The notes under the pieces were generated by a model. That model made no database searches. It was not told the DNA's origin and was given only the letters and a program-made list of their open reading frames with translations. From NCBI GenBank assembly GCA_963707505.1, contig CAVPQB010000004.1, positions 896,001-960,000 on the forward strand: 64,000 nt of DNA. Reading direction: 5' to 3'. Of this stretch, positions 45,326 to 58,469 are shown piece after piece; the stretch's first letter is position 1, and every line of letters begins with the position of its first letter. The position numbers and the translations under genes were made by a program. This DNA is from an uncultured Gemmatimonadales bacterium. Lineage in GTDB: Bacteria > Gemmatimonadota > Gemmatimonadetes > Gemmatimonadales > Gemmatimonadaceae.

Positions 45326-46057
45326 TCAGGGCGCAAACCGGTAGCCGGCCTTGCGCGCAGTGAGAATGTGGCGGGGTTCCGCGGGATCGGCTTCCAGCTT
45401 GTGCCGCAGCCGCGCGACGTGCTGATCGACGGTGCGAGACGTGAGGCCAGGTACGTAGTGCCAGACCTCGTCCATTACATGCTCACGGGAAATGATCGCG
45501 CCGTCAGCCCGAACGAGAAAGACCAGCAACTCGTATTCGCGCGGCGTCAGCTCCACCGCGATTCCGGCGCGCGTCACGGTGCGGGTCTTGAGGTCGATCG
45601 TAACGTCACCGAACTGAATATTCCCAGTTGATGCAGCATCGCTCGCACCAGGCGGCGTGCGTGGCTCGATACGGCGCAGCATTGCTTCCGCGCGCGCGAG
45701 CAGCTCGAGAACACCGACAGGTTTGACGACGTAGTCGTCTGCACCGCTTCGGAAACCCTGAACCTTGTCCACCTCGCCATCGCGTGCAGACAGGATCAGC
45801 ACGGCCGCCGTCCCGCCGTCGGCGCGAAAGCGGCGCAGCACGTCGAATCCGTTGACTTTCGGCAGCATGAGATCAAGAATCACCAGGTCTGGCGAGTGCT
45901 CGCCGAGCCACTCCAGCGCCACCTCTCCATCGGCGGCCCAGTGGACGTTGTATCCTTCGAATTCGAAGCTGGTGCGCAATCCGAGCGCGAGTGTCTCGCT
46001 GTCCTCTATTATGAGCACAGTGTGAGCGTGATGATCGTTCGCTTGAGATTCTGTCAT
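45326..46057 (-). CDS. OmpR-family response regulator
   Basis: IIED, LDLMLP, GADDYVVKP, LTPREYELL and RTVDQHVARLRHKLE. Confidence 0.95.
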   Translation of the reverse strand: MTESQANDHHAHTVLIIEDSETLALGLRTSFEFEGYNVHWAADGEVALEWLGEHSPDLVILDLMLPKVNGFDVLRRFRADGGTAAVLILSARDGEVDKVQGFRSGADDYVVKPVGVLELLARAEAMLRRIEPRTPPGASDAASTGNIQFGDVTIDLKTRTVTRAGIAVELTPREYELLVFLVRADGAIISREHVMDEVWHYVPGLTSRTVDQHVARLRHKLEADPAEPRHILTARKAGYRFAP

Positions 46058-46062
46058 TGTGA

Positions 46063-47685
46063 TTACTCCGCGGTCCAGCGTGGGAGAAATACGGAGATCC
46101 GTGCGCCGGTGTCGGCGCCCTGCTGGATCTCCACGCGCCCGTGCATCTGCAGAATCAGCTCGCGCGCGATCGTCAGGCCAATTCCGGTGCCCGCGGTCGC
46201 GTCTTCCGGAGAATCGAGCCGGGTGAACGCTTCCCATACGCGCTCGCGATCCTTGGCTGGAATACCGGGGCCGGAATCCTCGACCCAGATCTGGACGTCC
46301 TGGGCGTCCGTCCGCACGCCGATGCGAATGGTCTGACCGTTCGGGCCGTATTTCACTGCATTATCGATGAGATTTACAAGCACCTGTTTGAGTGCGCCAG
46401 CGTCGCAAGCCGCGACAGCTGGAACGGCGTCGATCTCGATCTTCATGGAGCGAGCTGCCGCCAGCTGCTCGCAGAGCTCTGCGGAACTTGCGACCACCTC
46501 GGAGACGTCGACCGGCCCGAGCGCGATTTGCGGCCGGGTGGTGCGCACTACTGCGAGGACGTTGTCGGTGAGGCGGATGAGGCGTTGAGTCTCTGTCTCG
46601 ATCACTTCGATTGCCTTGTCATGCTCGTCCTGATTGCGTGCGCGCTTGAGTCGAAGAATCTGCACGAACAACAGGATGTGTTGCAGAGGTGTGCGCAGCT
46701 CGTGCGAGATGTTCGCAAGAAACATCTCTCGCGACTCGACAAGCCTGAACTCCCTGCGCATCATCGCAAGTGTCGCGATGGCAAGCACAATGCTGCCAAT
46801 CAGCAGGAGGAACGAGCCTGGGAGGCGCGAGCTCGAGACACCGCCAAGTACGAGTCGCCTGGCGACCTTTGGGCGGAGACCGACGGTGATCACTATCCCG
46901 CTGATCTGCGGCACTGTATCAGTGCCCAGCGCACGTACAGGAACGCTGTGTGATGGCGCCGCGTACAGAGTACGTCCGTGACTGTCCGCGACGAGAATAC
47001 TCAGGATCGAATCGGTCGGCATGCCTTCCGTAAGGAACGGCGGAACTATGCGTGCGACACGATGGACCAGTGCATAATCCCAGACATCGTATGTCCCGTA
47101 ACACGATCGGTAGCCGTACACCGCCCGTACATGACCCGCAGCGTCGCGAACTGGCGTGAAGGCGATCGCTTCCGGGAAGTCGGGAGAGTCGACGAACAGA
47201 TATCCAAAGTGCCAGGAGGCTATCTCAGGCGTGACTGCAAGCTTGGGTATGGAATCCCGGATTAGCTGCATCGCGGCTGGAATCGGCGTCCCGCCGATGA
47301 TGGTCAGGGCGCGCGAGGGGAGGTCCATCCTGAAGCGGTAAATCTTCCACAGTGGAGACCGCGCACACGTCTCGCCGGTGTCGGGAATCGCGGGAATGAC
47401 GGTCGGCGGCGGAAGGGGTCCAGTCCAGGGATCGTCCGGCCCGAGCTTGACGAAGGCTTGCAGCACGGTGCGCTCGCGCGCCATGAGATAGATCCGAGTG
47501 TCGTACAGATAGCTGGCAAAATGCGCGTACGCATCCAGCGTGCGCTGCGCGGCCTCACGCTGTGCGCGTGCGGATCGAATCGCGTCTCGTAGAGAGAGTG
47601 CAGCACCGCCGACGATCATCGCAAGCGTCACCCCCACGAGAATCGTCCGGATCTTCTTCAGTTTTGGCCGGGCGGTTACGAACAT
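46063..47685 (-). CDS. Membrane sensor histidine kinase
   Basis: Two TM helices flank a periplasmic domain; SHELRTPL, NLIDNAVKY, DSGPGI and GTGIGL. Confidence 0.93.
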   Translation of the reverse strand: MFVTARPKLKKIRTILVGVTLAMIVGGAALSLRDAIRSARAQREAAQRTLDAYAHFASYLYDTRIYLMARERTVLQAFVKLGPDDPWTGPLPPPTVIPAIPDTGETCARSPLWKIYRFRMDLPSRALTIIGGTPIPAAMQLIRDSIPKLAVTPEIASWHFGYLFVDSPDFPEAIAFTPVRDAAGHVRAVYGYRSCYGTYDVWDYALVHRVARIVPPFLTEGMPTDSILSILVADSHGRTLYAAPSHSVPVRALGTDTVPQISGIVITVGLRPKVARRLVLGGVSSSRLPGSFLLLIGSIVLAIATLAMMRREFRLVESREMFLANISHELRTPLQHILLFVQILRLKRARNQDEHDKAIEVIETETQRLIRLTDNVLAVVRTTRPQIALGPVDVSEVVASSAELCEQLAAARSMKIEIDAVPAVAACDAGALKQVLVNLIDNAVKYGPNGQTIRIGVRTDAQDVQIWVEDSGPGIPAKDRERVWEAFTRLDSPEDATAGTGIGLTIARELILQMHGRVEIQQGADTGARISVFLPRWTAE

Positions 47686-47787
47686 GGGGGCGATCCCGTT
47701 GGATCAATCAAGATACCACGGCTTGCCGGCCGCGCGCACTCGGCGATTGTATACGAATGATTCCGTACTATTCCGGCGTGTGCTGGA

Positions 47788-48288
47788 CTAACGGTCCATC
47801 GCAACGACGAGGGGGCCGACGACGAGCATGTGATGGACGAAGTTGACCACGAAGCCCGGCGACGCGATGGGGACGTGGTGCAGCTTCGTCATCGGAAATA
47901 CGACGTAGCACATGGACGACCAGATGATCGCACCAAGTAACGGCCCAACGGTTACGACACCGATCCACCCCTCCGCTGCGCGTTGCAGCGCAGTCCAGTT
48001 GCGGTAAGCCACGTAGTACAGCGTCGCCCACGCGAACGCCACCGCTGCGTGCATGGCGAGCCCGATCAGCATGCCTTCGGTGCCGAGCGCATATGCCTCC
48101 TTGCCGAGCAGCGCAGCCGCCACTCCCTGGAAGACCCGAGCGAACGACGGATGACCGAAGAAGAGAAGTCCGAGCAGATACGCGCTGAACCCGTCGACGA
48201 TTGCCAGTACGCAACCGGTTCTCACGACAGTGGTGAGATCGTCGCGGCGCGTTGACGGGAGCGCCAGTGATGCTGTGGACATCGTCAT
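47788..48288 (-). CDS. Hypothetical 4-TM membrane protein
   Basis: CAGGAG RBS; FQGVAAALLG..A and G...H motifs; hydrophobic helices. Confidence 0.75.
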   Translation of the reverse strand: MTMSTASLALPSTRRDDLTTVVRTGCVLAIVDGFSAYLLGLLFFGHPSFARVFQGVAAALLGKEAYALGTEGMLIGLAMHAAVAFAWATLYYVAYRNWTALQRAAEGWIGVVTVGPLLGAIIWSSMCYVVFPMTKLHHVPIASPGFVVNFVHHMLVVGPLVVAMDR

Positions 48289-48413
48289 GACATTCTCCTG
48301 GTTGCGATGCTGCAAGCACTAAACAGTCGCGCGGCGCCGCGCACAAGCACGGCGCCTGTCAGGGAACGGTGACGGAAATTTTCCAAAGCGCCTGCGTCGC
48401 GCAGGCACCGAGC

Positions 48414-49721
48414 TCAACGCAGACTGCGGAACGCCCGCGCTGCTGCGTTGATCGTGTGGTCGGTCTCGGTTTCGCCGTGCTCTGTCGAAACGAACCACGT
48501 CTCGAACGCCGACGGCGGTGGAGAGACGCCGAGGTCGAGCATCGTGTGGAAGAAGGCGGAGTAGCGACGCGTGTCCGACGCGCGCGCATGTGCGTAGTCG
48601 GTCACCGGCCCGTCCGAGAAGAACGGTGTCAGCATCGTACCCATGTGCGGAACCTGGAGGCTCACGCCAGCGGTCGCCGCTTCGCGCGCGAGGCCCTTGG
48701 CAAGTGCGGTTGTCGCATCTGCCGCACGCTGCCAGACGCCAGGCCTCGCCAGCTCGCGAAGAACGGCGATTCCTGCCGCCATCACGACCGGGTTTCCGGC
48801 GAGCGTTCCCGCTTGATAAACAGGGCCGTCGGGAGCAATCTGTCGCATCAGGTCGGCACGGCCGCCGTACGCTCCGACAGGAAGGCCGCCGCCAATCACC
48901 TTGCCCAGCGTGGTCAGATCCGGCGCAATTCCGAATAGCGTCTGCGCGCCGCCCGGATGTACCCGAAAGCCTGTCATTACCTCATCGAAGATGAGCACGG
49001 CGTCGTACGCGGTCGTCTGCCAGCGCAGGACTTCGAGGAAGCCGGGCAGCGGTAGCACAACTCCCATGTTGCCAGCGATCGGCTCGACGATGACGGCCGC
49101 GATCTTGTGACCGTATTCCGCGAATGCGTTACGGACCGCCTCGACGTCATTGTACGGTAGCACCATCGTGTCACGAGTTGCTGCAGCTGGAACTCCGGGT
49201 GAATCCGGAAGTCCCAGTGTCGCGACGCCGGATCCAGCGCGCGCGAGAACCGAATCTGAGTGACCGTGATAGTTGCCGTCGAACTTGATGATGAGATCGC
49301 GCCCCGTCGCTGCCCGAGCGAGCCGAATCGCGCTCATGACAGCTTCGGTGCCGGACGTCACGAATCGCATTACCTGCATCGACGGCACGAATTGCTGAAT
49401 CGCCTGTGCGAGCTCGGTCTCCTGCGTGCTCGGCGCTCCGAAGCTCGTGCCTCGCGACGCAGTCTCGGTGATCGCGTCCAGCACAACTTGCGGCGCGTGA
49501 CCCAGAATGTGCGGACCATACGCGAGCACATAATCCACCAGGCGATTGGTATCGGCGTCCGTGACGTACGCGCCCTTGCCACTTACAATGAAACGCGGTG
49601 AGCCGCCGACGCCGTTGAACGCACGCACTGGCGAGCTGACTCCGCCCGGAAAGTAGTGTCGGGCGACATCATAGAGTCGCGCGGATTCTGAGGTATCTGG
49701 CGTCGTGTCGATCGATGTCAT
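48414..49721 (-). CDS. hemL: Glutamate-1-semialdehyde 2,1-aminomutase
   Basis: PGGVSSPVRAF, SGTEAVMSA, YHGHSD, FDEVMTGFR, GKVIGGGLPVGAYGG and YQAGTLAGNP. Confidence 0.97.
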   Translation of the reverse strand: MTSIDTTPDTSESARLYDVARHYFPGGVSSPVRAFNGVGGSPRFIVSGKGAYVTDADTNRLVDYVLAYGPHILGHAPQVVLDAITETASRGTSFGAPSTQETELAQAIQQFVPSMQVMRFVTSGTEAVMSAIRLARAATGRDLIIKFDGNYHGHSDSVLARAGSGVATLGLPDSPGVPAAATRDTMVLPYNDVEAVRNAFAEYGHKIAAVIVEPIAGNMGVVLPLPGFLEVLRWQTTAYDAVLIFDEVMTGFRVHPGGAQTLFGIAPDLTTLGKVIGGGLPVGAYGGRADLMRQIAPDGPVYQAGTLAGNPVVMAAGIAVLRELARPGVWQRAADATTALAKGLAREAATAGVSLQVPHMGTMLTPFFSDGPVTDYAHARASDTRRYSAFFHTMLDLGVSPPPSAFETWFVSTEHGETETDHTINAAARAFRSLR

Positions 49722-50803
49722 GCGGCTTCCTCTTTCTGTCGTGCTGCAAGGTATGTCGCCGCTGACGCGCCGGCACGCTCGCCCGAACAAATGCAATCGG
49801 GGATTCCAATGCCGTGAAACGTCGACCCAGCTATGAAAATCCCCGGAGCCGCTGCGAGCGCGTCGCCAAGTGCTGTCACGTTCGCGTCGTGATCGGGTGG
49901 GTACACGGGGATTCCAGCCGGCCACTCGTACACCCGCGTGAATAGCGGCGTGGCAGTGACGCCTAGAGTAGAGGCGATCTCCGTGCGTATCAGTGAGACT
50001 GCATCGAGCCCACAGCCGCGAACATATCCACGCAGAAGGACAACCCCCCGCGGCGCATGAGTCGGATTCTTGGAAGACGTCCACGTGCAGGCGCTGACTG
50101 CGGACGACGGGTCCGTTACCAGATAGCCGGTGCCCGAGAGCGAGCACTGAACATCCTCAGCGTTCCACGCCATGGTTACGGTGGTCGTTGCAGGGTATGC
50201 GATTCCGTCCAGCGTCTCCGCCCCTTTTACTGCAAGCGATGACAAGAGCGTCATGGCTGCACGTGCGGGAACTGCAACGATCGTGGCATCTGCGCTCAGC
50301 GAAGTGCCGTCCGCGAATTTCGTGATCCATCGTCCATCAGCCGTGCCCTGGATCGACTCTGCGGCTGCGTTCGTGCGCACCGTAACGTCGCTCAGCGCTG
50401 CGGCAGCCACGTCGATCAGTTCCCGGACCCCGTTTCGGAAGCTCAGCAACTCACCGTCGAAAGTCGTCGATGATCGCCGAAGCTCGCCGTCCCGACGTTC
50501 GTATGTCGGCAAGTTGTCAGGATTCACACGAATCACGCGTGTACCGAGCGACAGAGCATCGAAGAGGCTGGTAGCGCGCAGCTTGTTCCCGATGCAAACG
50601 TCAGCACCACCATCGACCACGCATCCATCCACAACGTCGCCCGCGATCTTGCCGCCGAGCCGAGCCGCCGAATCAGCCAGCGTGATAGTGCAGGAGTCGT
50701 TCAGTGCACGAATGCGGAGCGCGGCTGCGATTCCCGCGATTCCACCACCGATGACAAGAATCTCTTGCGTTGCGGTTGTCTCGATACTGCCGGTCACATC
50801 CAT
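49718..50803 (-). CDS. hemY: HemY-type (copro)porphyrinogen oxidase, internally shortened
   Basis: IGGGIAG, RLGGKI, DGGAD, GTGYLV, ACTWTSSK and GIGIPDCI; lies between hemH and hemL. Confidence 0.85.
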   Translation of the reverse strand: MDVTGSIETTATQEILVIGGGIAGIAAALRIRALNDSCTITLADSAARLGGKIAGDVVDGCVVDGGADVCIGNKLRATSLFDALSLGTRVIRVNPDNLPTYERRDGELRRSSTTFDGELLSFRNGVRELIDVAAAALSDVTVRTNAAAESIQGTADGRWITKFADGTSLSADATIVAVPARAAMTLLSSLAVKGAETLDGIAYPATTTVTMAWNAEDVQCSLSGTGYLVTDPSSAVSACTWTSSKNPTHAPRGVVLLRGYVRGCGLDAVSLIRTEIASTLGVTATPLFTRVYEWPAGIPVYPPDHDANVTALGDALAAAPGIFIAGSTFHGIGIPDCICSGERAGASAATYLAARQKEEAA

Positions 50804-51768
50804 CCGGCGTCCTGAGCACGACGTGCGATGATCGATGCCAGCTGCCGCACGAATTGCGGATCGTCGTTCAGCGACGGCGGCCGTTCCAGGTGCATCCCAA
50901 GCTCGCGCGCGATACGCTGTGCGTCGATGTCGATGTCGTAAAGGATTTCGACATGGTCACAGACGAATCCTACAGGCACACTGACGATGTTGCGTATGCC
51001 GCGCGCGGCGAGCGCCGCCAGATGATCGGGGTAGGTGGGACCCAGCCATGGCTCGGGGCTGCGACCGGCGGACTGGTAGCTCCACGACCACCGGTCAGAC
51101 GGTATTCCCGCGCTCTGCGCAACGAGCTGCGCAGTCTCGTGAACCTGCGCATCGTATGGATCGCCAGCGCGAATGATGCGCTCGGGCAGGCTGTGCGCAC
51201 TGAAGATCACGTGCACCGAATCACGCTCCGCTTCGGGCCAGCGCGCGATGCCGGCGAGCACACGATCGGCAAGCGCGGCGATCAGACCGGGCGCGGTGTG
51301 ATAACTATCGACGTGCGCGAAGTCGATGTGCGTGTGGTACATCGAAAGCCCATCGGCAATCTTCGCCTGATAACGCGCGATGCTCATGCCGCTGAAGTGC
51401 GGTGCGAGGACCATGCTGACAGCACGGTCGATTCCATCGACGCTCATCCGGCCAACCGTTTCCTCGATCCACGGCGACCAGTGGCGCATCCCGACGTACA
51501 CGCGGAAGCGCTGCTGCAAACCGGCGGGATTGAGCGTGCGCTCGATACCGTCGGCCTGGCGCCGTGTCAGCTCGGCGATCGGCGAGCGGCCGCCTATCGC
51601 TTCGTAGTTACGTGAGATCTCAGCGAGTACGGCGGGCGTTGTAGGACGGCCATCGCGTATGTCCGCGAGATAGCCGGGAATCTCGGCAAGCGAGTCCGGT
51701 CCGCCGTACGCCATGAGCAGCACACCGATCGGTGCAGTTTGGGCAGCTTCGTCCGGCATGCGAGTCAA
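50794..51768 (-). CDS. hemH: Ferrochelatase (coproporphyrin ferrochelatase-like)
   Basis: GVLLMAYGGP, GMRHWSP, FSAHSLP, QSAG...PWLGP and GFVCDHVEILYDID. Confidence 0.95.
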   Translation of the reverse strand: MTRMPDEAAQTAPIGVLLMAYGGPDSLAEIPGYLADIRDGRPTTPAVLAEISRNYEAIGGRSPIAELTRRQADGIERTLNPAGLQQRFRVYVGMRHWSPWIEETVGRMSVDGIDRAVSMVLAPHFSGMSIARYQAKIADGLSMYHTHIDFAHVDSYHTAPGLIAALADRVLAGIARWPEAERDSVHVIFSAHSLPERIIRAGDPYDAQVHETAQLVAQSAGIPSDRWSWSYQSAGRSPEPWLGPTYPDHLAALAARGIRNIVSVPVGFVCDHVEILYDIDIDAQRIARELGMHLERPPSLNDDPQFVRQLASIIARRAQDAGWM

Positions 51769-52886
51769 GCGCCGTAACCGCGCGCAGTAACCTCATGCAC
51801 GTAGTCCACGAGTCTGCGCACGCTGTCGACTGGTGTCGATGGAAGAATTCCGTGACCGAGATTGAAGATGTGGCCGGGACGGGACCCAGCGCGCATCAGC
51901 ACGTCATCGACCTGCGCCTTCAACTCTCGCCAAGGCGCGAGCAGTGCAATCGGATCAAGGTTTCCCATGATCGAATACCTGTCACCAAGTCTCGTGCGCA
52001 CCGAATCGAGCGGTGTGCGCCAGTCGATCCCCAGAACGTCACCACCGCACGCCGCGACGTCGTCGATGTATGCGCCGGTGCCGGTGCTGAAGTTGATTAC
52101 GGGAACCCCGGCAGCCATGACCGCGCGGTAGAGCGCTGCATTGTACGGCTGCACGTAACGCGCATAATCGTGTGGACTGAGCGCGCCCGCCCACGAGTCG
52201 AACACTTGCAGAACATCCGCGCCTGCACGTGCCTGCGCGACGAGGTAGTCGGCAAGCACAGTAACCAGGCGGCGCATCAAGCGACTCCACGCAGCAGGTT
52301 CCGCGTACATGAAGCTCTTCGCCACGTCATAGCGTTGCGAGCTGGCGCCCTCGATCGCGTAACATGCCAGTGTAAACGGCGCGCCGGCGAATCCGATCAG
52401 CGCTGTCGACGCGGGCAGCGCGTCTCGTACGAGCCGAATCGCACCGAGCGTACCGCGCATCGTCTGCTCCGCTGGTGGAGTGCCGAGCATGTCGACGTCA
52501 CGTGAAGCGCGAACCGGGTTCGCGATACGTGGGCCGGCGCCCGCGACGAAGTCGAGCTCGAGTCCCATGCCGATGAGCGGCGGAAGGATGTCGGAAAAGA
52601 TGATCGCCGCGTCGACACCGAGTGCGTTCACGGGCTGCAGCGTGATCTCGGCCGCAGTCGCGGGATCGCCAATCGCTTCCAGCATCGTCTGTTGCGCACG
52701 GATCGCGCGATACTCCGGCATGTACCGTCCGGCCTGGCGCATCAGCCACACGGGCGTGTGCGGCACAACCTCTCGACGGCAAGCGCGAACGAGAACGGAA
52801 CCCGCAGCTACGCTCGCGGAGGGTGCGTCCCCGTGGACAGGCCGCATTGAATGATGCTGGGTTGCAGGCGGACGCGTTGCTGCCAT
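51765..52886 (-). CDS. hemE: Uroporphyrinogen decarboxylase
   Basis: PVWLMRQAGRYMPEY, DAAIIFSDIL, IGFAGAPFTL, GNLDP and HIFNLGHGI. Confidence 0.97.
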   Translation of the reverse strand: MAATRPPATQHHSMRPVHGDAPSASVAAGSVLVRACRREVVPHTPVWLMRQAGRYMPEYRAIRAQQTMLEAIGDPATAAEITLQPVNALGVDAAIIFSDILPPLIGMGLELDFVAGAGPRIANPVRASRDVDMLGTPPAEQTMRGTLGAIRLVRDALPASTALIGFAGAPFTLACYAIEGASSQRYDVAKSFMYAEPAAWSRLMRRLVTVLADYLVAQARAGADVLQVFDSWAGALSPHDYARYVQPYNAALYRAVMAAGVPVINFSTGTGAYIDDVAACGGDVLGIDWRTPLDSVRTRLGDRYSIMGNLDPIALLAPWRELKAQVDDVLMRAGSRPGHIFNLGHGILPSTPVDSVRRLVDYVHEVTARGYGA

Positions 52887-53884
52887 CAATCGTTCAGCCA
52901 CCGCGCGGCATCCTTCGCGTGATATGTGATGATCATTCCGGCGCCCGCCCGTCGCATCGATGTGAGTGATTCGAGCACGATCGCGCGCTCGTCGATCCAT
53001 CCTGCCGCGGCCGCAGCCTTCACCATCGCATATTCGCCACTCACATTGTACGCGACGAGGGGCACGCCCGGATGCGCGGCGCTCACGGCGCTCACGATGT
53101 CGAGATAGGCGAGCGCAGGCTTCACCATCAGTAAATCCGCACCTTCAGCAACATCGAGCGCACTCTCCCGCAACGCGATACCGCGGTTCGCGGGGTCCAG
53201 CTGATGCGTGCGACGGTCGCCGAACGTCGGTGCGCCACCCGCCGCCTCGCGGAACGGGCCGTAGTACGCCGATGAATACTTCACGGCATAAGCCATGATG
53301 GCGACATTCGCATGGCGTGCGTTATCGAGTGCGATACGGATCGCACCGACGGCGCCGTCGATCATTCCGCTTGGTGCGACGATGTCCGCGCCCGCCTCTG
53401 CGTGCGATATTGCAATCCGTTGCAGGGAATCGAGCGTCTCGTCGTTGATCAGATATTGCCGAGCGTCGAGAATCCCGCAGTGTCCGTGCGAGGTGTACTC
53501 GCACATGCACACGTCCGTGATGACGACGAGATCAGGTGCGTGAGTCTTGAGAGTACGGATCGCGCGCTGAACGGCACCGTCGGACGCGTAACTCTCCTTC
53601 CCATGTGGATCCTTTCGCTCCGGTGCCGGGACCCCAAATAGAATCACCGCGGAAACGCCGACTGCGATGAGCTCATTGGCGATGGCCGTTACACGATCGA
53701 CGGAAACGCGATTGATTCCTGGCATCGATTCGATCGACTCGACGACGTTTTCGCCGTCCGTGACGAAGATCGGTGCGATGAGATGCTCTGGTCTCAGCGA
53801 AGTCTCGCGCACCATTCGCCGCAGCGTGTCGCTGGTGCGCAGCCGGCGGAGTCTCACGGTGGGGAACTGGCCGGACTCGGTCAT
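52886..53884 (-). CDS. hemB: Porphobilinogen synthase (Zn-type)
   Basis: DVCMCEYTSHGHCG, APSGMIDG, YYGPFREA, MVKPALAYLD and YNVSGEYAM. Confidence 0.97.
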   Translation of the reverse strand: MTESGQFPTVRLRRLRTSDTLRRMVRETSLRPEHLIAPIFVTDGENVVESIESMPGINRVSVDRVTAIANELIAVGVSAVILFGVPAPERKDPHGKESYASDGAVQRAIRTLKTHAPDLVVITDVCMCEYTSHGHCGILDARQYLINDETLDSLQRIAISHAEAGADIVAPSGMIDGAVGAIRIALDNARHANVAIMAYAVKYSSAYYGPFREAAGGAPTFGDRRTHQLDPANRGIALRESALDVAEGADLLMVKPALAYLDIVSAVSAAHPGVPLVAYNVSGEYAMVKAAAAAGWIDERAIVLESLTSMRRAGAGMIITYHAKDAARWLND

Positions 53885-54663
53885 TGAATGGTCATCGGCG
53901 GAGTTTGCTGCACATTGTCGTGCGGGCCGATGCCGAATATCCTGGAAAGCGCGCTAACGACGCCATCCAGAGTGTACACCCCCGCAACAGCCGAGACCGG
54001 CAACCCCACCTGTGTCGCTGCTTTCGCAGTAACGGGTCCAATGCAGACTATCCGCGGCGCGACGGAGGTGCCGAAGCAGGCTACGAATGCGTGCACTGCT
54101 GATGGACTGGTGAACGTTATCGCATCGGCTTCCAGTATCCGACTTCGAGTCTCGTCCTGCACGGTGCGAGCGACTGTGTCGTACAGAATCCGTTCCACGA
54201 CGTCGGCACCCCGTGCGCGCAGCGTATCCGAGAGAACCGAGCGCGCACCGGCTGCGCGCGGCCAGAGAATTTTCATTCCTTTCACGTCGCCAAGCGCATC
54301 GGCCAGCGACTCGGCGACGAATTCAGGTGCCGTCACTGCCGAGGTCGCGCCGAGTGCAGCAACCGCCCGGGCAGTAGCCGGTCCAACCGCCGCGATCGCG
54401 CGATGCAACCGGAATGCTGTCTGATCGGCAGCATCGAGCCGAGCCCAGAACATGCGCACGCCATTCGCGCTCGTAAACGCAATCCAGTCGAAGTCCCCGA
54501 CCGAAACCGACGCGGCCGAATCATCGTGATGGACCGGCTCGATGCCGATGAGTGGAACCACGAGTGGTTCGGCGCCAGCTCGCCGGAGCGCGGTCGTGAG
54601 TGGGCCGTCTTCCATCTCGAATCGCGTCACGACGACGCGACGTCCTGCGAGCGGCGTCGTCAC
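53881..54663 (-). CDS. hemD: Uroporphyrinogen-III synthase
   Basis: LAGRRVVVTR, FDWIAFTSANGV, AVGPATA, FTSPSAV and CIGPVTA; its GTG overlaps the hemC stop. Confidence 0.92.
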   Translation of the reverse strand: MTTPLAGRRVVVTRFEMEDGPLTTALRRAGAEPLVVPLIGIEPVHHDDSAASVSVGDFDWIAFTSANGVRMFWARLDAADQTAFRLHRAIAAVGPATARAVAALGATSAVTAPEFVAESLADALGDVKGMKILWPRAAGARSVLSDTLRARGADVVERILYDTVARTVQDETRSRILEADAITFTSPSAVHAFVACFGTSVAPRIVCIGPVTAKAATQVGLPVSAVAGVYTLDGVVSALSRIFGIGPHDNVQQTPPMTIQ

Positions 54664-55382
54664 GCCTGCATCGCCCGTAACGACGAGCTCAGCTCCGCGT
54701 CCACGGCATTGTGCAATTCGATGTCGTCGATGCGCGTCAGGATGTCGAGAGCGATCGGATCGTCCGCGCGGCACTGTACTGCGAGCGCACCCTGGCCCGC
54801 TGCGGGCGGCATCGTCGTGAGATCGAATATCTCGGTGATGTTCGCGCGTAGCTGCAATCGATCGAGACCTGCAAGAGCAAGCAGCGCTGCGTCGTAATCG
54901 CCCGCGAGCACTTTCGCCACGCGCGCATCCACCGTGCCGCGAATCGGTCTTACCTCGAGGTCAGGACGCAGCGCGAGAACCGCCGCGGCTCGTCGCTCGC
55001 TCGATGTGCCAACCAGAGCGCCTGGCGGAAGCTCGCTCAGCTTGAGCGGACGCGCGCACACGAGAGCTTCGCGCGGATCGGCGCGAACGGGTACCGCGGC
55101 GATCACGAGTCCGGCAGTCGAGTCAGGCGGTAGATCCTTGTACGAGTGGACTGCGGCGTCGATCTCACCGGCGCTCAGTGCGCGCTCGAGCACATCGGTG
55201 AAAGCGTCAGGAGCCAACTGCGGCGCGGGAACGTCGAGCATCATGTCGCCCGACGTTTCGTATTCGCGCACTTCGACGTCGAGTTGAGGATGCGCAGCGC
55301 CAAGCAGTCCGGCGACGATCGCCGTCTGGCGCAGTGCGAGCTCGGACTTCCGGGTCCCAACGACGAAACGTCCTGTCATCAT
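54660..55382 (-). CDS. hemC: Hydroxymethylbilane synthase, C-terminally short (240 aa)
   Basis: GTRKSELAL.Q, DAAVHSYKDLP, RADPRE, VGTSS.RR, IRG.V..R, LALAGL.RL and PAAGQGALAV. Confidence 0.88.
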   Translation of the reverse strand: MMTGRFVVGTRKSELALRQTAIVAGLLGAAHPQLDVEVREYETSGDMMLDVPAPQLAPDAFTDVLERALSAGEIDAAVHSYKDLPPDSTAGLVIAAVPVRADPREALVCARPLKLSELPPGALVGTSSERRAAAVLALRPDLEVRPIRGTVDARVAKVLAGDYDAALLALAGLDRLQLRANITEIFDLTTMPPAAGQGALAVQCRADDPIALDILTRIDDIELHNAVDAELSSSLRAMQA

Positions 55383-56494
55383 ACCCCTATTGGGCTGGCC
55401 ATCCGCTTGGATTCCGATGCGCGGCGTGGTGGCGTACCTGTCGAACGAGCGGCAAGTCGCTCCTCGAGTATCGCGAGCTCTTCGCCGATTATCCGCTCGA
55501 CTGCCGGAATGACAGCGCGGCGCTCAGCATGGGCCGCTATCACATACGGCCCGAGATCGTCGATGCCGATCAGCTTCGCACCAGCCACGCTTCGGACGCT
55601 GACGTCGACATTACGCGGCAACGAGACATCGACGAGCGTCATGGGACGATCCGGCCTGTGCGCGAGCGCCGTACTCACCGTGCGGCTGTTGATCAACGGA
55701 AGTGTGGCGCGTGTCGCCGCAATCACCACGTCCGCGTCGCGTAGCAGAGACGGCAGAAGATTCAACGGACATGCGTCGGCGCCGTGATGCGCACCCATCT
55801 CGACAGCGGCTTCGACCGTTCGGTTAGCAATCGTGATTCTGCGCGGCGCGTGCGGCGCCAGCGAGCGGAGTGCAAGCTCGGCGATCTCGCCAGCTCCGAC
55901 GACTACCACGTTGCGCCCAGCAAGTCCGTTCGCAGCGGTCGCGGCGGCATCGACCGCCGCCGAGCCCAGGCTGGCCGCCTGAAGACGTCCCCAGATCATG
56001 CCACGAGCACGCTCACCGGCGCGAACGGCGCTCTTGAACGCCAGCTTTAGTAGTGGTGATGCAGCGTGCACTGCAACCGATTGGCGCAGCGAGCTCGCAA
56101 CCTGCCCGGTGATCTGGGCCTCGCCAATTACGACCGAGTCCAGTCCAGCGGCGACCTTGAAGAGATGCTCCGCCGCCGCCAGCCCGTGAAGCGAATAGGC
56201 GTGCGCTGCCAGTGCAGATTCGGGGATTCCACACGTCGCCGACCACCATTCGAGCATGATCTCGCGGACGTCGGTTGTGGTGGCAGGCGTCTCCGTGTAC
56301 AGCTCGGTGCGATGGCAGGTTGCGATCACCACAAGCCGCTCGATTCGCGGGTCGTGTCGCGCGGCAGCCAGCGCTTCGTGAAGCAGGGATGTGGAAAAAC
56401 CGGCACGCTCGCGCAGCTCGGATGTAGCCGTTCTGTGGCTGATTCCGAGGCAGTCTAGCCTGAGGCCGGTTTCTACGGCTATTTCAGTGACCAA
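55379..56494 (-). CDS. hemA: Glutamyl-tRNA reductase, C-terminally short
   Basis: GISHRTA..ELRE, TCHRTELY, HLFKVAAGLDS.VIGE.QI.GQV, VVGAGE, IANRT and D.SLPRNVD; TTG start uncertain. Confidence 0.9.
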   Translation of the reverse strand: MVTEIAVETGLRLDCLGISHRTATSELRERAGFSTSLLHEALAAARHDPRIERLVVIATCHRTELYTETPATTTDVREIMLEWWSATCGIPESALAAHAYSLHGLAAAEHLFKVAAGLDSVVIGEAQITGQVASSLRQSVAVHAASPLLKLAFKSAVRAGERARGMIWGRLQAASLGSAAVDAAATAANGLAGRNVVVVGAGEIAELALRSLAPHAPRRITIANRTVEAAVEMGAHHGADACPLNLLPSLLRDADVVIAATRATLPLINSRTVSTALAHRPDRPMTLVDVSLPRNVDVSVRSVAGAKLIGIDDLGPYVIAAHAERRAVIPAVERIIGEELAILEERLAARSTGTPPRRASESKRMASPIGV

Positions 56495-56627: not shown

Positions 56628-58469
56628 ATGCAAACGTTCGGACAGACCAAACAGGGGACGCCGTTGACAGTGAAATATACCTCTCGCCATCAGCTGGCCG
56701 CGCTCGCCGGCTCAGCTCCATTGGCTCGCGCGGCCGCTGCCGCGGCGCTCGCGGCGATGCTTGTGCTGTCAGGGTGCAAGACGTCCAGCCCGGGCGCCGA
56801 GGCGCCTGGCACCGCTTCGACTCCGGCAGTGCACGCGGCGTTTCCGGACGGCTGGGGAAACAAGCGTAGAAGGCCCCCGACCGTCGAGCAGCACGCGATG
56901 GTCGTCAGCAATAGCAACCTCGCCAGCGAGGCAGGCGCCGAGATCCTGAAGAAGGGCGGAAACGCCGTGGATGCGGCGGTCGCGACGGGCTTCGCGCTCG
57001 AAGTCACATTCCCGTTCGCCGGCAACATCGGCGGCGGCGGGTTCATGGTGATCCGGATGGCCAACGGCGATGCTGCCGCGATCGACTATCGCGAGACGGC
57101 ACCCCTCGCCGCGACGCGAGACATGTACATCGAGAACGGGAAGCTCACGAATAAGAGCACCTTGGGGGGACTCGCATCCGGCGTTCCCGGCTCTGTGGCG
57201 GGAATGGCGGCGGCGCTCGCGAAGTACGGCACGATGTCGCTGCACGATGTGATGCAACCGGCCATCAGACTCGCCTCGGATGGCTTCGTCGTGGACAGCG
57301 CAACGTCGCGAGGGCTGGGGGCAAGCGCGCATCTCATCAGTCAGTTCGCCGGCGCCGCGGTATTTCTGCCGGGCGGCAAGCCACTTCCTCCCGGCACGCT
57401 GCTTCGCCAGCCCCAATTGGCGAAGACCCTGCGCCTGATCGCCGACCAGGGACCATCGGCATTCTACACCGGTCCGATCGCCGACGAGATCGTCGCGCAA
57501 ATGAAGCGCGACGGCGGGATAATCACCAGGCAGGACCTTGCGTCGTACAAGCCGGAGTGGCGCACACCGATCCTCGGGAAGTATCGCGGCTACACGCTGT
57601 ACGCGATGCCGCCGTCGTCCAGCGGTGGCGTGACCACCGTGGAAATATTGAATCAACTCGAGACGTGGAAGTCACTTCCGCCATTCAACAGCGCCGCGTA
57701 CAAGCATCTTCTCGCCGAGACGTTCCAGCGCGCGTTCATCGACCGCAACACAAAACTCGGTGATCCGGCGTTCGTTACAAATCCGCTCGACATGTTGACT
57801 GACAAGGCGTACGCCAGGAAACTCGCGTCGACCATACAGCCGGATCGTGCCACCCCGTCGCCGTCGTTCGCGGCAGCTGCGGAGCCGATGCACACCACGC
57901 ACTACTCTGTCGTCGATGCGTCCGGCAACGCGGTGTCTACCACGACGACGCTCAACAGTGGCTTCGGGTCCGGCGTCTTTGTCGCCGAGGCGGGCTTCTT
58001 CATGAACGACGAGATGGATGACTTCGCCGCTGAGCCAGGCAAGGCGAACCAATTCGGTCTGGTGCAGGGTGAGATCAACGCGATCCAGCCTGGCAAGCGC
58101 ATGCTGAGCGCCATGTCTCCGACGATCGTGCTGGATCGTAACGGCAAGCTCATGCTGGTGGTCGGTGCCGCCGGCGGGCCGACGATCATCACAGGCGTCA
58201 CGCAGGTGATTCTGAATGTGATCGATCAGCACATGTCGCTTCCCGACGCGATGTTCGCGCCACGCATGCACGATCAGGCGTGGCCGGATGAGATCACGTA
58301 CGAGAGGGGCGGATTCTCGCAGTCCGCGACTGATTCGCTCGTAGCGATGGGATACAAGCTGCACGAGGTAGGCGGTCTCACGAACGTAAACGCCGTGATG
58401 CGTGGTCCGGACGGACGCTGGGTCGGAGTGTACGAGCCACGTTCCAACGGCGGCGCCGTCGGCTACTGA
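56628..58469 (+). CDS. ggt: Gamma-glutamyltransferase (lipoprotein; start uncertain)
   Basis: GGNAVDAAVA, GNIGGGGF, DYRETAP, PPSSSGG, autocleavage HTTHYSVVD, PGKRMLSAMSP and GGPTII; lipobox LSGC. Confidence 0.95.
   Translation: MQTFGQTKQGTPLTVKYTSRHQLAALAGSAPLARAAAAAALAAMLVLSGCKTSSPGAEAPGTASTPAVHAAFPDGWGNKRRRPPTVEQHAMVVSNSNLASEAGAEILKKGGNAVDAAVATGFALEVTFPFAGNIGGGGFMVIRMANGDAAAIDYRETAPLAATRDMYIENGKLTNKSTLGGLASGVPGSVAGMAAALAKYGTMSLHDVMQPAIRLASDGFVVDSATSRGLGASAHLISQFAGAAVFLPGGKPLPPGTLLRQPQLAKTLRLIADQGPSAFYTGPIADEIVAQMKRDGGIITRQDLASYKPEWRTPILGKYRGYTLYAMPPSSSGGVTTVEILNQLETWKSLPPFNSAAYKHLLAETFQRAFIDRNTKLGDPAFVTNPLDMLTDKAYARKLASTIQPDRATPSPSFAAAAEPMHTTHYSVVDASGNAVSTTTTLNSGFGSGVFVAEAGFFMNDEMDDFAAEPGKANQFGLVQGEINAIQPGKRMLSAMSPTIVLDRNGKLMLVVGAAGGPTIITGVTQVILNVIDQHMSLPDAMFAPRMHDQAWPDEITYERGGFSQSATDSLVAMGYKLHEVGGLTNVNAVMRGPDGRWVGVYEPRSNGGAVGY

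Follow-up and report, generated by a model that had tools for sequence, protein, structure and literature searches.

Introduction

Porphobilinogen deaminase (HemC, HMBS) is defined by a dipyrromethane primer that the enzyme assembles itself and holds on a cysteine. The present analysis concerns the heme biosynthesis operon hemA-C-D-B-E-H-Y-L in a 64,000-nucleotide stretch of an uncultured Gemmatimonadales bacterium (hereafter the window; contig CAVPQB010000004.1, positions 896,001 to 960,000), where three enzymes (HemA, HemC and HemY) are missing one domain apiece and HemC has no cysteine for such a primer. The operon is real and conserved and, judging from its sequence, probably functional.

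With the canonical deaminases of known structure (E. coli 1PDA, B. megaterium 4MLQ, human 7CCX) the window HemC shares the fold of domains 1 and 2, the catalytic aspartate, the arginines of the substrate site and of the cofactor rings, and the place in the operon; it is without the cysteine loop, the rest of domain 3, the lid lysines, Asn151 and Arg232, the last of which is mostly lost across the homologues. HemCs without domain 3 are already in the databases under the ordinary name. NCBIfam NF002202 (PRK01066, 241 positions) and Atlas clusters rich in Chlamydiota describe proteins that, like the window HemC, have about 240 amino acids (aa) and no domain 3, and the dimerisation domain missing from the window HemA is likewise missing from the HemA model NF001909 (338 positions) and from a Chlamydiota HemA cluster; both NCBIfam models are presumably chlamydial. 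The window HemC reaches 103.2 bits against NF002202 (cut-off 251), a weak score which places it in a different sequence family, as judged by comparison with the model. Full-length operons of the same gene order, hemA-C-D-B-(chdC)-E-H-Y-L, and of the same pathway type are found in other Gemmatimonadota families and in Chloroflexota (G025, G036, G038, L086 and L095), but they have all domains and do not come out as sister to the short operon when HemB and HemL are analysed together in a tree. The FAD motifs and Asp65 (Asp68 here) of B. subtilis CgoX/HemY (3I6D) are common to the window HemY, whereas the membrane-binding domain is found in CgoX only; likewise, the catalytic and NADPH domains and the spinal helix of M. 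kandleri glutamyl-tRNA reductase (GluTR; 1GPJ) are common to the window HemA, whereas the dimerisation domain is confined to GluTR.

No paper on a HemC without domain 3, a HemY without membrane domain or heme synthesis in Gemmatimonadota was found in a search that left subscription journals mostly uncovered. A cysteine-less HemC of 240 residues that is the sole copy found makes it testable why the primer is needed and how the chain stops at four rings. Structure work and heme production strains could also profit from so small a deaminase and from a HemY that is soluble and has two domains; according to PMC10427985, no substrate-bound CgoX structure exists.

Structure and residue signature of the short HemC

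The window HemC matches PF01379 and has no match to PF03900; its profile alignment ends at E. coli residue 237, five residues short of the cofactor cysteine Cys242. Domain 3 of the E. coli enzyme comprises residues 222-313 (PMC3945110), and judged by this boundary the first helix of domain 3 is kept. The score against TIGR00212 is 237.6 (cut-off 164). An AlphaFold model based on a 60-row alignment (pLDDT 95.6) predicts a complete two-domain fold plus one terminal helix, at 1.2 A from 4htg and with a TM of 0.83-0.91 to solved deaminases.

Among the 120 HemC homologues listed, 91 form the short set (256 aa or less and no PF03900, including a few fragments) and 29 are full-length; unless stated otherwise, the counts below refer to these listed proteins. 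Lengths of 239-240 aa were found in 64 of the 91 short homologues, down to about 52% identity. Residues H79, S80, K82, D83, R130, R131, R148, R154, R175 and Q197 are present in 91/91, and R11 and S13 in all 85 short homologues covering those positions; D83 aligns with the position of the B. megaterium D82 mutant. In E. coli numbers (mapped by alignment; human numbers were mapped by offset), the catalytic Asp84 and Arg11, 131, 132, 149, 155 and 176 are all present in the window HemC. The single substrate site is placed in domains 1 and 2 by PMC7959689, and the residues given there, which correspond to R11, S13, Q19, S80, D83, R148 and R154, are invariant where covered; a further residue of that site, an asparagine, is replaced (see below).

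The lid and its surroundings are altered. The lysines K55, K59 and K64 of the canonical lid, Asn151 and Arg232 are absent from the window HemC, and the lid has 21 residues instead of 22; a lid lysine is found in 3/91 short versus 21/29 full-length homologues. The substrate-site asparagine (Asn169/151; Asn150 in the present numbering) occurs in none of the 91 short homologues, where it is replaced by Ala, Thr or Pro, versus all 29 full-length ones, and an arginine at 231 is kept in 20/91. Acidic residues were gained in the lid (D63 in 91/91, D59 in 79/91) and in domain 2 (E129 in 80/91). According to PMC7959689, the displaced cofactor is gripped by lid Lys70/74/79 and by domain-3 arginines; what the short HemC has lost, i.e., the cysteine loop, the domain-3 arginines and the lid lysines, is thus the set of residues that hold the displaced cofactor. 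By the cofactor that defines the canonical enzyme, the window HemC falls outside it.

A total of 478 distinct HemC domains was also classed by crude patterns (fragments and some misfiled rows included). Where both domain 3 and the cysteine are present, 306 of 320 HemCs have the asparagine; of those that have domain 3 and lack the cysteine, 2 of 16 do, and of those lacking domain 3, 17 of 142. For the lid aspartate the corresponding figures are 2/320, 8/16 and 116/142. As the signature is also seen in cysteine-less HemCs that retain domain 3, it tracks the loss of the tether and not the loss of the domain. The active-site substitutions that accompany the loss of the cysteine had not been covered by the first-pass annotation of the window.

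Recurrence, copy number and selection

Regarding the 21 other genomes of the genus, a short HemC (64-93% identity) was found in 14, a full-length HemC of another lineage in six, and no match in one. Together with the genome of the window (G000, 83% complete) this gives 15 short-type genomes, in which HemC has 240 aa (14 genomes) or 239 aa (one genome) and HemA 361-371 aa, with starts chosen by script. A short HemY is present in 11 of the 15 (357-363 aa in 10; the copy of G009 on another contig), and hemY was not found in three of them (G008, G019 and G021). Of 301 genomes sampled from the phylum, only three, all from this genus, gave scores above 400 bits, the next score being 267; the close homologues are labelled Gemmatimonadaceae or Gemmatimonadota. 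Genome G023 has two full-length hemA copies (C2:1237149 and C4:1479615).

Frameshift or misassembly as the cause of the short genes was rejected, because the same protein ends recur in 14 other genomes; moreover, contigs of related strains from public runs (93-96% alike; X1 records 2 and 7, X4 record 31) run uninterrupted across the HemY deletion point and across the junctions A/C and C/D. Each of the 15 genomes yielded a single match for hemA and a single match for hemC. Neither PF03900 nor PF00745 was detected in any of the 15, while all six full-length controls had them; in all frames of G000 they gave chance-level matches only (E 0.09 and 0.26, none over the cut-off). Genes split into free-standing domains were on this basis rejected, and the view of the first-pass annotation that the missing parts are absent rather than shifted into another frame is borne out. 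In five of the 15 genomes completeness reaches 90% or more and contamination stays at 5% or less, and no hemA or hemC paralogue was found in those that are 98-99% complete. Two genomes, G007 and G017, are flagged as unpublished; when both are excluded the counts become 13/13 and 0/13. They also enter the length and domain alignments, one pair of the substitution analysis, and the HemY and HemB+HemL trees.

Ratios of non-synonymous to synonymous substitutions (dN/dS) were obtained as pairwise counts for six pairs from 10 genomes, pairs with a dS over about 1.5 being near saturation. They were 0.07-0.11 for hemC, 0.08-0.20 for hemA and 0.14-0.18 for hemY, compared with 0.05-0.13 for the intact hem genes of the same pairs; pairs of full-length operons with measurable dS gave 0.12-0.41 (hemC), 0.15-0.32 (hemA) and 0.10-0.38 (hemY). 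Short hemA, hemC and hemY are under strong purifying selection, and their ratios do not exceed those of the full-length pairs. The truncations recur in relatives at dN/dS well below 1, as a minimal pathway had been expected to show, and the other option of the first-pass annotation, orderly erosion beside full-length paralogues, is contradicted by these ratios and by the single gene matches.

A decay of the three genes, or a function other than heme synthesis, with the cell scavenging heme or using paralogues outside the assemblies, is largely refuted and very improbable. The incomplete state of G000, the exclusion of heme uptake genes from the searches and the hemY of G020, which is split into three pieces in three frames (L045:4043-5181), would fit such a decay; against it stand dN/dS values as low as in intact genes, the constant HemC length in all 15 genomes and most listed homologues, and the lack of paralogues in the nearly complete genomes. 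Several hem genes of G012 (L055) are likewise in pieces. As both G020 and G012 are few-contig assemblies, sequencing indels are the likely cause of their broken genes.

Pathway type and need for heme

A ChdC-family gene was found in G000 and in 11 of the 15 short-type genomes, and chdC lies inside the operon in the deeper relatives L068 and L069. Since ChdC is encoded in the window, the heme pathway here is assigned to the coproporphyrin-dependent type (HemE, HemY and HemH plus ChdC). The chdC gene, which sets the pathway type, was not mentioned in the first-pass annotation.

In the five genomes tested, HemF, HemJ, a HemG-type flavodoxin and DUF1444 (which we take to be the CgoN family) were not found, matches to 5-aminolevulinate synthase remained under the cut-off, and heme-copper oxidase subunit I was present throughout. 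A bypass via 5-aminolevulinate synthase was rejected, the two matches in G000 being BioF and Kbl. With no alternative route found and heme-copper oxidases present, the only supply route detected for a cofactor that these cells use runs through the short enzymes (HemN and heme uptake were outside the search). Four full matches to heme-copper oxidase subunit I are present in G000, one of which (G000:C4:409498-410841, minus strand) has an internal TAG.

Candidate mechanisms of the short HemC

Of the options in the first-pass annotation, a working minimal pathway, here with a HemC unable to carry a covalent cofactor, is supported by these data. The leading proposal, held tentatively, is that HemC joins four porphobilinogens primer-free and untethered, within a working coproporphyrin-type pathway with three truncated enzymes. 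Two porphobilinogens would bind to both tight pyrrole sites between domains 1 and 2 (Arg130, Arg131, Arg154, Lys82 and Asp83), and each new monomer would lose its amino group and be joined to the chain at the one substrate site (Arg11, Ser13, Gln19, Ser80, Asp83, Arg148 and Arg154), the growing chain leaving through the space formerly filled by domain 3. With no cysteine to accept the chain, ring A would retain its aminomethyl group, which the lysine-free lid with Asp63 (mostly also Asp59) may hold or help to expel. The tetrapyrrole would be released whole, without cleavage from a primer, and then be handed to HemD, which in some relatives is fused at exactly the position where HemC ends.

Several points weigh against this proposal. 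Ring A must still lose its amino group in a primer-free scheme; deaminase can reportedly do so on free aminomethylbilane. The role of Asp63 in the lid rests on alignment and not on measured geometry, and the function of HemC is here inferred from its sole copy and from selection, i.e., from sequence. In the human enzyme every intermediate is covalently bound to Cys261 (PMC7907807), and the cofactor cysteine is called invariant (PMC3949521). The activity of the E. coli enzyme suffers from R232H, K55Q and K59Q (PMC3945110), substitutions at positions that differ in the present HemC. Domain 3 stops chain growth (PMC7959689), and length control at four rings lacks an explanation in a protein without it. 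As for the pathway as a whole, ChdC was not found in four of the 15 short-type genomes, one of which is 96% complete, hemY is broken in G020, and hemY evolves about twice as fast as hemB, hemE and hemL.

In the alternative already suggested by the first-pass annotation, the pathway works and HemC keeps a dipyrromethane primer non-covalently by means of the domain 1-2 arginines and Asp83, extends it to six rings and cleaves it. The residues that grip both cofactor rings in the resting enzyme are invariant in the 91 short homologues. In E. coli, a Cys242Ser mutant reportedly remains weakly active and binds its cofactor loosely. The lid lysines and domain-3 arginines, which grip the primer once it has slid back (PMC7959689), are nevertheless lost and the lid is acidic, so that an untethered primer would tend to leave in every cycle. 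The covalent intermediates of the human enzyme, the impaired E. coli mutants and the lack of an account of length control weigh against this alternative as well. A non-covalent primer is ranked below primer-free synthesis and considered unlikely, if still the strongest of the competitors.

A tether to another nucleophile, namely the protein's own Cys204, Lys82 or Asp63, or a small thiol, is quite improbable. Cys204 and Asp63 are present in 91/91 short homologues, and a gamma-glutamyltransferase gene, which would suit a small thiol, is found beside the operon at 9 of 14 related loci. Cys204, however, is inherited (27/29 full-length homologues) and located in a domain-1 strand, a second cysteine (109) occurs in just 61/91, and the flanking gene is a different one in L068 and L069.

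If primer-free synthesis extends beyond the window, cysteine-less HemCs might form a second mechanistic class of tetrapyrrole polymerase, without dipyrromethane primer and with multiple origins; this wider proposal is held slightly more cautiously still. A free bilane would be grown at a single condensation site, with an acidic lid handling ring A, and the origins would comprise this Gemmatimonadaceae clade, a clade near Bacillota, a CbiX-fused clade whose domain 3 is empty and, probably, Chlamydiota. The operon of the window would then be the cleanest free-standing example, alongside a reductase without dimerisation domain and a two-domain oxidase.

Phylogenetic position and other cysteine-less HemCs

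The main short HemC clade is monophyletic in both HemC trees (support 100 and 99) and in the HemB+HemL tree (99). In the all-column HemC tree (145 rows sampled) it joins 15 cysteine-less proteins that retain domain 3 (Shimodaira-Hasegawa-like approximate likelihood ratio test 96); with the diagnostic columns removed (76 rows) this grouping breaks up, and a single clade was not rejected by the approximately unbiased test (p 0.31). The best BLAST-type matches of the short HemC are from Chloroflexota. A simple transfer from that phylum was not shown, as the clade falls among mixed phyla in the HemB+HemL tree and likewise in that of HemY.

A HemC clade with domain 3 and no cysteine (P0250, P0289, P0304, P0342, P0357 and P0369) includes many proteins fused to a CbiX-like chelatase. 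Other HemCs without the cysteine or without domain 3 (P0248, P0274, P0303 and P0310; P0131 and P0149; P0249) branch apart from the main clade, and one of these groups adjoins a Bacillota protein. They possibly represent independent origins.

HemA and HemY

The window HemA has the GlutR_N and NADPH domains and no GlutR_dimer domain (PF00745); it ends at residue 323 of the 404 of M. kandleri GluTR, keeps the spinal helix and scores 244.8 against TIGR01035 (cut-off 209.55). Residues C60, R62, H110, S120, E125 and Q127, which we take to be catalytic, are invariant in 12/12 aligned sequences. A histidine replaces the asparagine beside the catalytic cysteine (TCHR) in 9/9 short-type proteins versus 1/60 others. 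Loss of the dimerisation domain from HemA is common, with clusters of this kind in no fewer than four phyla (Chlamydiota, Fusobacteriota, Bacteroidota and Bacillota), and is therefore not special. Removal of the dimerisation domain from E. coli HemA is said to lower its activity and to weaken HemL binding. The three domains of GluTR and the E. coli complex are confirmed by PMC4726326. In the proposed pathway HemA would act as a monomer or loose dimer that supplies HemL.

The HemY profile gave two matched stretches with the middle of the model unmatched, the protein aligning with B. subtilis residues 6-83 joined to 226-468. Among the 120 HemY homologues listed, 77 with 340-420 aa were taken as the short set and 42 full-length ones were compared. 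GxGxxG is present in 76/77 and G[IV]PD in 75/77 short homologues, and the glycine motif of the membrane domain in 0/77 versus 34/42 full-length ones; D68 is invariant in 9/9 aligned sequences and aligns with B. subtilis D65. The short HemYs form one clade (support 99). CgoX is already a soluble monomer, and its membrane-binding domain forms one wall of the substrate cavity (both PMC10740692); as the deleted domain lines it, the cavity of the short HemY would be more open. HemY may be a soluble oxidase that dropped an unneeded membrane domain.

The first-pass annotation had described the missing parts as discrete structural domains. This is correct for the domains gone from HemA, HemC and HemY and needs qualification at the boundaries, since HemC keeps the first helix of domain 3 and HemA the spinal helix.

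Separate losses or one complex

In two genomes, G004 and G011, a short HemY stands alone (L144:5176-6474, minus strand; L145:4889-6157, plus strand), away from a hem operon of the order A-E-H-C-D-B-L that encodes full-length HemA and HemC of another lineage. The losses are therefore separable, which argues against a single supercomplex replacing the lost parts, and the three are best read as separate economies rather than one new machine.

An obligate complex of the short HemA and HemC with HemD, perhaps also HemL, in which a partner would close the cleft of HemC, count the rings or stand in for the dimerisation of HemA, is improbable. It would agree with the translational coupling of the hem genes and with fusions: the 120 listed clusters hold fusions of short HemA, short HemC and HemD in six cases, of short HemC and HemD in four and of short HemA and HemC in one, and P0357 joins a dimerisation-less HemA to a cysteine-less HemC. 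One of the six triple fusions, of 853 aa, is encoded at L068:7936-10497 (Gemmatimonadaceae), in an operon with chdC and short hemY. The solitary HemYs and the wide distribution of dimerisation-less HemA speak against the complex, and HemC-HemD fusion is also common with full-length HemC; a fusion is for that reason no proof that HemD replaces domain 3, a further point against untethered synthesis by the short HemC. The fusions show that the short forms tolerate tethering. The earlier suggestion of a complex replacing the dimerisation and membrane domains is hence weakly supported at best, a loose association being permitted. A predicted complex of short HemC and HemD scored 0.00 with controls likewise unfolded and was not used as evidence; the fusion P0123, modeled by AlphaFold without alignment, gave a pLDDT of 36.7, too low for use.

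Operon layout and neighboring genes

All eight hem genes are open reading frames on the minus strand, and all eight proteins are named by Pfam and NCBIfam (Table 1). The first-pass annotation had listed HemA, HemC and HemY as short and the other five proteins as complete, with which the Pfam and NCBIfam matches and the boundaries in solved structures agree. It had also described all genes as joined by overlapping stop and start codons without frameshifts; the frames are indeed open, and overlaps are present at six of the seven junctions (ATGA at A/C, D/B and Y/L, GTGA at C/D, TGATG at B/E and 10 nucleotides at H/Y), the E/H junction overlapping only if hemH starts with the TTG at 51768 (321 aa from the ATG).

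Table 1. Features of the window discussed in the text (coordinates are window positions).
Feature	Start	End	Strand	Length (aa)	Product and remarks
hemL	48414	49721	-	435	glutamate-1-semialdehyde aminomutase
hemY	49718	50803	-	361	coproporphyrinogen oxidase-like flavoprotein; membrane-binding domain (about 100-110 aa) deleted near residue 116
hemH	50794	51768	-	324	ferrochelatase, from context presumably coproporphyrin ferrochelatase; length from TTG start
hemE	51765	52886	-	373	uroporphyrinogen decarboxylase; ATG start overlapping hemB stop
hemB	52886	53884	-	332	porphobilinogen synthase
hemD	53881	54663	-	260	uroporphyrinogen III synthase; normal length
hemC	54660	55382	-	240	porphobilinogen deaminase, domains 1-2 plus one helix; no cofactor cysteine, altered lid
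hemA	55379	56494	-	371	glutamyl-tRNA reductase without C-terminal dimerisation domain; TTG start, TCHR instead of TCNR
Non-coding element	56529	56575	-		conserved, 35-80 bases upstream of hemA; 10 aligned loci
chdC (hemQ)	29351	30148	+		coproheme decarboxylase family; outside the hem operon

The non-coding element is kept in 10/10 aligned loci and contains a CAACTTTC box and a pair of CCGTAG-like copies with a spacing of 17 bases; it is a probable promoter or regulator site. The TTG start of hemA is kept in the same 10 loci, in which no obvious ribosome-binding site was seen before it. The gamma-glutamyltransferase gene of the window (56628-58469, plus strand) is divergent from hemA. Downstream of hemL and on the same strand, the region 45326-48315 encodes a membrane protein of 175 aa, with no match in Pfam or NCBIfam, followed by a histidine kinase and a response regulator; the latter two are kept in five related loci and the 175-aa protein in three.

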